In this document: piece by piece, positions 30,001-32,000 of the stretch
Layout: each line of letters starts with the position of its first letter
How positions within the stretch are numbered: position 1 is the stretch's first letter
Assembly: GCF_025384895.1 (NCBI RefSeq)
Contig: NZ_JAJAFZ010000037.1
Coordinates: 17,206-49,205, forward strand
Direction of reading: 5' to 3'
DNA: 32,000 nucleotides
From: Photorhabdus kayaii
GTDB taxonomy: Bacteria > Pseudomonadota > Gammaproteobacteria > Enterobacterales > Enterobacteriaceae
Program-made: the position numbers

Positions 30001-32000
30001 GAAGAGATTGGAATAATGGGATTACCTGTATTCTATGTTTTATCTAAAACCTCACCTCAAACTCAGTCACCATTGTTTGAGGTGGAAACGAAAGCATTTT
30101 ATCCTCAATTGAAGGAAGGGCAGCGTTTAGCTTTCAAATTACGCGTTAACCCAACAATCTGTATTACTGATCCTTCTGGAAAACGTCAGCGTCATGATGT
30201 TTTGATGCATGCTAAGTTTAAGGCAAAACAGCAAGGTGAAACGGAACAGGGGAAAATAAGAGTGATGATGGAGAATGCTGCCCGTAATTGGCTGTTAAAT
30301 CATCGTCGTATGCAGCAGTGGGGTATTCAGTTTGACGATTTACTGGATATTGAAGGTTATACTCAGCATCGAAGTGTAAAAAAGCAGGGGCAAAAAATAC
30401 AATTTTCCAGTGTTGATTTTCAAGGGCTTCTGACGATTACCAACGGTGAGCTATATTTGGAACAGTATGCAAAAGGCTTTGGTCGCGCTAAAGCGATGGG
30501 ATGTGGATTGATGTTAATTAGAACAGTATAATGGCATTGATGTCATTTAAATTTATTTTTGTTGAAGATCGTAATGCAGTATTCTTTGTTGTATGAAGAT
30601 ATTGATGTTAAAGGTAGCAAATTCGCTGTTGTTAGGCGTTCGTGTTATGTTTCAAAAGCACGGTAAAAAGTGATATTGCTAACTAATATCATCCTGTAGA
30701 GTAAGGCGTGGTCGTTACTCTCGGAAATATTGATAAAATAATTACCGTGTTCCTCACCTCTGTGGGGATAAACCCGAATTTTGGTATACATTTGCACAGG
30801 GAAAAATATGTTTCCTGTGTTTAATGGGATAAACCGCTATAATTAGTGGTAGGATATCGTGTTAGTGAGTGTTCCTGGTCATTACCGGGGTAAACCAAAC
30901 TCGATAAATCTCGTCAAAGAGAGAATTTAAGTGTTCCCTGTATTTACGGGGATAAACCGCGGCATGAGTGATGCTTTACTATGTTCACTAAATGTTCCCT
31001 GTAATTACGGGGATGGACCTAGCAGTGCTCCAAATAGTTATATAGCTAAGGATGAGTTCCCTGTATTGTACTCACGGGGATAAACCGTACGAGAATGACA
31101 CTGATCATTGGCTTCCTTGGTGTTCCCTACCTCTCTGGGGATAAACCGGACAGTAACAGTGACATAGTCGGTAGTCATTGGTGTTCCTTGTGTCCACGGG
31201 GGTGAACCGAACTGATACTGTTGTGCTTTGGATTTGGAAGCGTGTTCCCTGTACTAACGGGGATAAACCGAACAGTTAGCGTTTGAGCTGGCAGAGATGG
31301 ACTTGTTCCCCGTTTCTACGGGGGTAAACCGCTAAATACAGAACTATCTCCATCTGTTGCAATTTGATCCCTGTAATCTACGGGGATCAACCGTCATCCG
31401 GAAAGGTCATTGACATAAAGGGTCAGAGTTCCTTGACTTGATGGGGATAAACCAGATTCAGGTTTCATGATGATAGTTGAAGTAGAAATGTTCCCCGTTT
31501 TTACGGGGAAAGAGCAATTCGCTGCCACCTTGACCACAATTTTCAGGCCGATGATAAATCTGCGGTTCGGGCATATCGATACCGGGCAGTATTCGCTCGG
31601 TGATTTGACAGCGCTTTTTTCGGTATTAAGGTCAACGGCTTATCGAATTTTTTTACGTAAGAGAATGGCTCAGGATAACTAACGGAAATTTGTAATGAAG
31701 AAAAAGCGACTAAGAAAATTTCAGAAAGAACTTGAGACGTTGGGGTTAATTGAAAATGATCCAGATGTGGTCGGTTATGTGCTGTTTAACACGCGTAATC
31801 GCCGATTTGTGATACTGGATAAATATGAATTGGGGAGGGTGACTTACGCCGATGATATTGAAGAAGCTTATTTAGCAATGTCACGATTTGCCGCATTAAT
31901 GGATATTGATTCTTTGCCGGAGCCAGACAAATTCGATATTGTTGTTATCCCTGTTATTGATAACCCTTTATTTGGGTTAACGCCTAAAAAAACAGATTAA

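Follow-up and report, generated by a model that had tools for sequence, protein, structure and literature searches.

A decayed cas1 remnant joins cas6e to a degenerate type I-E CRISPR array in Photorhabdus

We analysed a 32,000-nucleotide (nt) stretch of the Photorhabdus kayaii genome, here called the window (contig NZ_JAJAFZ010000037.1, positions 17,206 to 49,205). It carries a type I-E CRISPR system. The genes cas3, cse1, cse2, cas7e, cas5e and cas6e lie in this order and are followed, after a short tract, by a repeat array. The adaptation genes cas1 and cas2 are missing. The tract between cas6e and the array appears to contain what is left of cas1. The features of this region are as follows.

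30531-30634, forward strand: cas1 pseudogene remnant, codons 1 to ~34; out of frame from ~30590-30599 (net -2 nt), with a stop at 30594-30596.
30635-30746, forward strand: leader-like non-coding tract of 112 nt, 63% AT, single copy in the genome.
30734-30739, forward strand: candidate -10 element, the hexamer TAAAAT, with TGn ahead of it in the window; present in all aligned species and not called by a consensus scan.
30747-31516, forward strand: type I-E CRISPR array of 13 degenerate repeats and 12 spacers (31-33 nt); no two repeats are identical.

The cas6e stop codon (TAA, 30529-30531) overlaps an ATG at 30531-30533. The frame from this ATG is an open reading frame (ORF) of 21 amino acids (aa), MALMSFKFIFVEDRNAVFFVV, closed by a TGA stop at 30594-30596. 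The +1 frame reads YEDIDVKGSKFAVV and continues to a stop at 30664-30666. Only 80 nt then remain before repeat 1 at 30747. For comparison, 300 genomes of the same GTDB family were queried with Cas6e. The nearest intact relatives are G043 and G215, with Cas6e 56-57% identical, and G263 (49%). Of the 27 best loci outside Photorhabdus, 25 have a Cas1 ORF of 304-307 aa that begins at the cas6e stop or shortly after it; one has a 99-aa Cas1 ORF and one has none. The overlapping stop and start, TAATGGC, is the same in several intact loci, among them L029, L043 and L053. In G043, G215 and G263 the Cas1 N-terminus is MAFIPLKPIPIKDRNSMIFIGMGRIDVKDNAFVV. The two frames of the window match outgroup Cas1 at MA, K7, I9, DRN, F19, IDVK and F/A-V-V.

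Significance was assessed in two ways. First, a DNA profile was made for nhmmer from the stubs of 16 Photorhabdus species (P. kayaii and 15 others, with one complete chromosome of 5.69 Mb), and ~155 kb of outgroup loci served as target. The profile matched the first ~100 nt of cas1 in the three nearest intact loci, L028, L029 and L031 (E-values of 1.9e-8, 1.2e-7 and 2.6e-5, respectively). Weaker matches, at the same position in cas1, were found in six more distant loci. Second, the window sequence alone was aligned to outgroup Cas1 residues 1-50 by frameshift-aware protein-to-DNA alignment. The score was 55. By comparison, 16,029 random 216-nt segments of the P. kayaii genome gave a mean of 22.3 (standard deviation 3.9) and a maximum of 46, and the maximum of 7,854 shuffles was 45 (empirical p < 1e-4). 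At the nucleotide level, positions 30531-30629 and nt 1-101 of G043 cas1 are identical at 63 of 101 positions, with two 1-nt gaps. For positions 30531-30634 and nt 1-103 of G263 cas1 the count is 70 of 107. The homology stops at ~30634. Weak nhmmer matches between the middle of the tract and internal parts of cas1 in distant loci (E 0.046 to 8) were judged not significant, because they are missing from the nearest outgroups.

Similarity to Cas1 (PF01867) is hence confined to the first ~34 codons. A full-length ORF of ~306 aa, with its C-terminal catalytic domain, is absent; the reading frame stops after 21 codons. The position of the stub, directly after cas6e and with an overlapping start, is as in intact loci, but cas2 does not follow downstream. 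By these comparisons, we take 30531-30634 to be a pseudogene remnant of a type I-E cas1, predicted to yield no Cas1 protein.

The extent of the loss can be estimated from G043, where cas1 has 306 codons, cas2 has 97 codons and 82 nt separate cas2 from repeat 1. Given these gene sizes, ~272 codons of cas1 and the whole of cas2, or ~1.1 kb, would have been lost. The 112 nt after the stub resemble neither Cas1 residues 36-306 nor Cas2, with scores at or below the null mean. A search of the P. kayaii genome, which is 100% complete by markers, found no match to PF01867. Across the 16 Photorhabdus genomes, a type I-E Cas1 query matched only type I-F Cas1 genes (24-27% identity, at other loci), and a type I-E Cas2 protein query matched nothing. 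The I-F Cas1 (327-333 aa) is encoded in single copy at a separate locus in 11 of the 16 species. This system has no type I-E adaptation module of cas1 and cas2. Since no type I-E integrase was found anywhere in the genus, the array would be unable to gain spacers.

The original prediction for this DNA, made by reading the sequence without database searches, was of a frameshifted cas1 stub joining cas6e almost directly to the array. The TAATG overlap, the two frames and the 80 nt to repeat 1 at 30747 lie where it put them, and the stub is borne out by profile E-values down to 1.9e-8 and by a frameshift-aware score of 55, where no null segment exceeds 46. The E. coli-type Cas1 string that it cited occurs verbatim in the I-E Cas1 of L043 and L053, from the same GTDB family. 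Its estimate that about 270 codons of cas1 and all of cas2, some 1.1 kb, were removed is reproduced from the gene and leader lengths of G043. Its proposal that the distal leader had probably gone too is not supported: 112 nt remain here versus ~75-82 nt between cas2 and repeat 1 in intact relatives, and no leader similarity is detectable (a profile of the leader-like tract gave no nhmmer match to outgroup leaders).

The type I-F cas1 of P. kayaii is also truncated. Only its last 44 codons are kept (G000:C170:11573-11704; locus L129 2487-2705); they are fused to the end of a mini-array of two repeats and lie immediately upstream of cas2/3. With both lesions, an intact Cas1 of whatever type is missing from this genome, yet five I-F arrays with perfect repeats are present (contigs C28, C170, C181, C200 and C214).

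All 16 Photorhabdus species have a cas6e stop, a homologous tract of ~125 to 355 nt and then repeat 1. In 13 of them the tract is ~200-235 nt long. Because the scar is common to all 16, the loss is ancient and not a strain trait. The same architecture recurs in 16 independent assemblies, including the complete 5.69-Mb chromosome, which rules out an assembly artefact. Alignment with intact loci of related strains had been proposed as a check on the original prediction. It yields the homology to cas1 nt 1 to ~103 in G043 and G263; no intact Photorhabdus locus occurs among the 16 species. An equivalent non-coding spacer in related strains had been named as the observation that would speak against the stub. 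A spacer is indeed present in all 16 species, but it is itself a cas1 remnant. Hence, its genus-wide presence does not refute the prediction and instead dates the event.

The stub has decayed differently in different clades. Read from the alignments, the distance between the conserved landmarks CTTT and TATTGA is 14 nt in the outgroup, 12 nt in the clade of the window, 13 nt in the heterorhabditis/cinerea clade and 5 nt in the temperata clade. Near the ATG, 14 nt are deleted in the luminescens clade. A 19-nt deletion is found in the group of asymbiotica, australis, heterorhabditis and cinerea, and two species are without a further 62 nt of the tract. An 8-nt indel is also among those that alter the length of the stub ORF, which spans 3-38 aa from the conserved ATG depending on the species. 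The 3' end of the cas1 homology is common to all clades. Clade-specific frameshifts together with a shared end of homology suggest that a large deletion came first and is the lesion held in common, whereas the frameshifts arose afterwards as decay within individual lineages. At 4-fold degenerate sites of the cas genes, the distance from P. kayaii is ~0.20 to the luminescens clade and 0.35-0.40 to distant clades. The corresponding p-distances of the stub are 0.13-0.20 and, for most, 0.28-0.37. Allowing for alignment bias, the stub appears to evolve at a near neutral rate. In P. heterorhabditis only (locus L120), an element of ~125 nt resembling the enterobacterial repetitive intergenic consensus is inserted between the scar and repeat 1.

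We consider it very probable that the tract holds the decayed 5' end (~34 codons) of a type I-E cas1, that an ancient deletion preceding species divergence produced it, and that the array has since been frozen and passed on vertically. The ancestor of Photorhabdus would have carried a canonical locus, cas3-cse1-cse2-cas7-cas5-cas6e-cas1-cas2-leader-array. One deletion of ~1.1 kb, or a tight series of deletions, would have removed cas1 from ~codon 35 and all of cas2 before the sampled species diverged. Freed of coding constraint, the stub would have drifted almost neutrally, collecting small clade-specific indels; in P. kayaii, a net change of -2 nt would have brought the stop at 30594-30596 into frame. 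The array would have been inherited with a fixed set of ~12 spacers while its repeats diverged. Precursor CRISPR RNA (pre-crRNA) would arise either by read-through of the cas operon or at a weak promoter within the ~25 conserved nt that adjoin repeat 1, and Cas6e would still cut those repeats that preserve the hairpin.

Several points weigh against this account. In a plain tblastn search, full-length outgroup Cas1 and Cas2 found no significant match in the 32-kb window, and the first frame of the stub reached an E-value of only 1.6. The significance of the stub needs a profile, a positional prior or frameshift-aware alignment. Even the closest outgroup with an intact locus is far removed (Cas6e 57% identical), which limits the placing of the deletion's 3' boundary and the tracing of the origin of 30635-30746. 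The Pfam Cas2 model PF09707 had no hits in Photorhabdus, but it also failed in an E. coli control. Hence, the absence of cas2 rests on the I-E Cas2 protein query and on the comparison of the 112-nt tract. Finally, a single deletion and stepwise loss are not separable in these data.

Stepwise decay is a possible, if doubtful, alternative. Here, an initial inactivation of cas1, for example by a frameshift, would have been followed by erosion of cas1 and cas2 through several smaller deletions, and the whole course would predate the radiation of the genus. The number of events is not constrained by the data. Moreover, the stub and leader-like tract kept gaining deletions of 6-19 nt and of 62 nt in individual lineages, so deletional decay is active here. 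However, the frameshifting indels differ between clades (12, 13 and 5 nt between the landmarks, against 14 nt in the outgroup), and no shared frameshift predates the radiation. The 3' end of the cas1 homology, by contrast, is shared.

It is also conceivable that 30531-30746 gained a new function, whether as a promoter, as a short ORF with translational coupling or as the structured 5' leader of the pre-crRNA. The TAATGG/TGATGG junction is kept in 16 of 16 species. The final ~25 nt ahead of repeat 1 are the best-conserved part of the tract across the genus, and TAAAAT is found there in every species. An 8-bp long-range helix pairs 30658-30665 with 30742-30749; it brackets the leader-like tract, covers the first 3 nt of repeat 1 and recurs in 13 of 13 species, where a single GC-to-AU change is compensatory. 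The leader-like tract also folds better than its shuffles (z -2.8). Helix and folding signal are weak evidence, and only a single compensatory event is seen. Set against a new function, the ORF is not conserved, being broken by non-triplet indels, the cas1-derived part evolves almost neutrally, and 62 nt of the tract are gone from two species. A consensus scan from cas6e to repeat 1 predicted neither an intrinsic terminator nor a two-hexamer sigma-70 promoter. We regard a new function as unlikely.

That scan result is compatible with transcription of the array by read-through from the cas operon, which is plausible. A weak extended -10 promoter, formed by TGn and TAAAAT, may be an alternative source. 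An Rfam search of 30400-32000 gave no family match. A hidden repeat 0 and spacer 0 upstream of repeat 1 were also considered and rejected, since by eye the agreement with the repeat consensus extends to only 10 of 29 positions.

The interference and processing genes upstream are listed below with Pfam family, E-value and the ratio of non-synonymous to synonymous substitution rates (dN/dS).

23141-25858, forward strand: cas3, 905 aa, intact; Cas3_HD 1.4e-39 and Cas3-like_C_2 2.6e-35; dN/dS 0.14-0.16.
25873-27477, forward strand: cse1/cas8e, 534 aa, intact; PF09481 1.8e-117; dN/dS 0.13-0.16.
27477-28058, forward strand: cse2, 193 aa, intact; PF09485 5e-22; dN/dS 0.11-0.15.
28070-29113, forward strand: cas7e, 347 aa, intact; PF09344 1.5e-102; dN/dS 0.08-0.13.
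29094-29870, forward strand: cas5e, intact, whose true start may be 29124; PF09704 3.5e-51; dN/dS 0.13-0.20.
29857-30531, forward strand: cas6e, 224 aa, intact, with a stop overlapping the old cas1 ATG; PF08798 3.2e-49; dN/dS 0.06-0.12.

The signature type I-E effector set (cse1, cse2, cas7e, cas5e and cas6e) and cas3 are thus all present, with Pfam E-values of 5e-22 to 1.8e-117. Their dN/dS across the genus is 0.06-0.20, at synonymous distances (dS) of 0.2-1.0. All six are full-length genus-wide, with two exceptions. The cse1 of P. asymbiotica has one internal stop, and cas3, which is full-length and stop-free wherever the contig covers it (15 species), is truncated by a contig end in P. temperata. 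Cas6e is 85-96% identical to that of the 15 other species. These ratios indicate that the interference and processing genes have remained under strong purifying selection. The gene upstream of cas3 (21255-22619) encodes a Fic/DOC-family protein (PF02661, E 5.7e-9).

The closest Cas6e proteins outside the genus include those of marine gammaproteobacteria (Salinivibrio, Shewanella and Oleiphilaceae). At ~56% identity they equal the nearest family member, so the system has a history of transfer. The Photorhabdus ancestor could have acquired a cassette already without cas1, scar included, after deletion in a donor. Another genus of the family (G226) also has a Cascade-only locus with degenerate repeats. 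However, the same scar was not found outside Photorhabdus. On the G226 locus the stub profile gave only chance-level matches (E ~7-9), none at the cas6e-array junction. In addition, the identity ranks of the six cas genes and the array fall in consistent clades, as vertical descent within the genus predicts. We judge acquisition of a scarred cassette improbable. The last explanation, that the similarity to cas1 is fortuitous and that an ordinary intergenic leader lies where cas1 and cas2 never stood, has the negative tblastn search in its favour but is already refuted, as far as sequence statistics allow, by profile matches placed exactly at cas1 starts, by 0 of 16,029 null segments reaching the observed score and by a start-stop overlap identical to that of intact loci, and we give it almost no credence.

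We return to the array, which on the favoured reading has been frozen since the deletion. With hairpin repeats of ~29 nt and spacers of 31-33 nt it fits the type I-E pattern (spacers of 32-33 nt), though all repeats are degenerate. The array is orthologous across the genus. In the two nearest species the identity is 94% across 712 nt; it falls to 86-88% for the luminescens/akhurstii clade and to 69-85%, partly in pieces, for distant clades. Each of the 16 species has 12-14 repeats. Genus-wide, all 7 stem pairs are kept in 124 of 171 repeats of 29 nt, with double changes at three inner stem pairs, and the repeat-to-repeat spacing is 59-63 nt in 174 of 196 cases. Indels in the array are mostly of 1-2 nt or of whole units; the stub and leader-like tract have many of 6-19 nt. 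In the luminescens and distant clades alike, repeats diverge at about half, and spacers at ~0.7, of the rate at 4-fold sites. Two spacers, S3 (30898-30930) and S4 (30960-30991), are conserved across the genus like repeats. Their identity to distant clades is 0.83, versus ~0.62-0.65 at 4-fold sites and 0.54-0.78 in other spacers. Low dN/dS, full-length cas genes and conserved repeat structure suggest that the interference and processing machinery was selected long after adaptation was lost, and the repeat structure less strongly so.

Spacers had no significant match in phage and plasmid collections. No target was found in the P. kayaii genome or in other Photorhabdus genomes, where the sole match was a second repeat-S10-repeat unit. 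Matches of a seed plus protospacer-adjacent motif were at chance level. The second unit lies on the 568-bp contig C144 (locus L128 1-568), which has a copy of a partial repeat, S10 (29 of 32 positions identical) and a repeat, related to 31303-31393 of the window. As this S10 copy is flanked by repeat sequence, it is not a target. The unit is fused to sequence whose place in other species is immediately distal to the array, and it adjoins an AbrB/MazE-like ORF. Only P. caribbeanensis (G009:C68) shares the full C144 arrangement. In the window, an ORF of 101 codons (31695-32000) without a Pfam match lies distal to the array. It is present in P. caribbeanensis and absent from most other species, whose array-distal flanks differ.

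One tentative explanation for this retention is that Cascade, Cas3 and ~12 fixed guides were kept through the history of the genus because the guides are useful. They might give innate immunity to a recurrent mobile element, or serve endogenous regulation like that of NilD, a CRISPR-derived RNA discussed below. The hairpin-preserving repeats, the conserved length of the repeat unit and the unusual conservation of S3 and S4 favour this idea, to which we give less than even weight. Alternatively, the cas genes may be retained for another reason, with the array simply decaying slowly.

Loci without an adaptation module are of an already known kind, and the stub by itself is a pseudogene remnant of an ordinary sort. 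What makes it valuable is that it serves as a marker with a date. It indicates that the I-E system of Photorhabdus once had cas1 and cas2 and lost them by deletion, rather than being assembled without them, and the loss is datable to before the radiation of the genus. The locus would thus exemplify, in nature and over a long time, a CRISPR system that is maintained (dN/dS 0.06-0.20) though unable to learn. It bears on the purpose of interference-only CRISPR, and on the evolution of repeats, spacers and leaders after acquisition has ended.

Compared with a canonical type I-E locus of the E. coli K-12 type (here G043, G215 and G263), the order and families of the genes from cas3 to cas6e are the same. 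So are the overlap of the cas6e stop with the cas1 start, the 29-nt repeats with a 7-bp hairpin and a ATAAACCG-type 3' handle, and the 32-33-nt spacers. In Photorhabdus, however, cas1 is down to ~34 decayed codons, cas2 is absent and every repeat is different. Furthermore, the Photorhabdus array is orthologous between species, whereas canonical I-E arrays are variable between strains.

The closest described parallel is in Xenorhabdus. Strains of the X. griffiniae clade have, at the eda locus, a second type I-E set without cas1 and cas2 and with degenerate repeat remnants (PMC11566119). Like the Photorhabdus locus, this is an I-E interference operon without adaptation genes, and both occur in nematode-symbiotic entomopathogens of related genera. 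The Xenorhabdus strains also have a complete I-E set elsewhere, which could act in trans (PMC11566119); no I-E cas1 or cas2 was found in the 16 Photorhabdus genomes. No cas1 scar is described for the eda set (PMC11566119). Within Photorhabdus, the TT01/DJC genome paper reports six arrays, all with the I-F repeat, and a truncated I-F cas1 in P. laumondii TT01m; it mentions neither a degenerate I-E array nor the scar (PMC6267812). That only I-F arrays are listed there indicates that standard CRISPR finders miss the degenerate array, and hence that Photorhabdus annotations understate CRISPR content. The TT01m lesion resembles the I-E scar in that a deletion beside an array truncates cas1, and the P. 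kayaii genome carries the same I-F lesion. It differs in subtype and locus, in having lost the 5' rather than the 3' end, and in being recent, since 11 of the 16 species keep an intact I-F cas1. In our literature search, neither the I-E scar nor the degenerate I-E array of Photorhabdus was described in any paper.

Two further comparisons concern reduced systems. In locus L058 (G226:C19, reverse strand), degenerate repeats come after cse1-cse2-cas7-cas5-cas6e, and the locus is without cas3, cas1, cas2 or a homologous scar. It looks like an independent Cascade-only remnant. NilD of Xenorhabdus nematophila, reportedly described by Veesenmeyer et al. in 2014, is said to be a fixed CRISPR-derived RNA with a non-adaptive, Cas6e-dependent role. 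It is reportedly a free-standing single repeat-spacer unit with a colonisation phenotype. NilD may therefore be a functional analogue of the frozen Photorhabdus array, with the difference that NilD is a single unit and the Photorhabdus locus a multi-spacer array.

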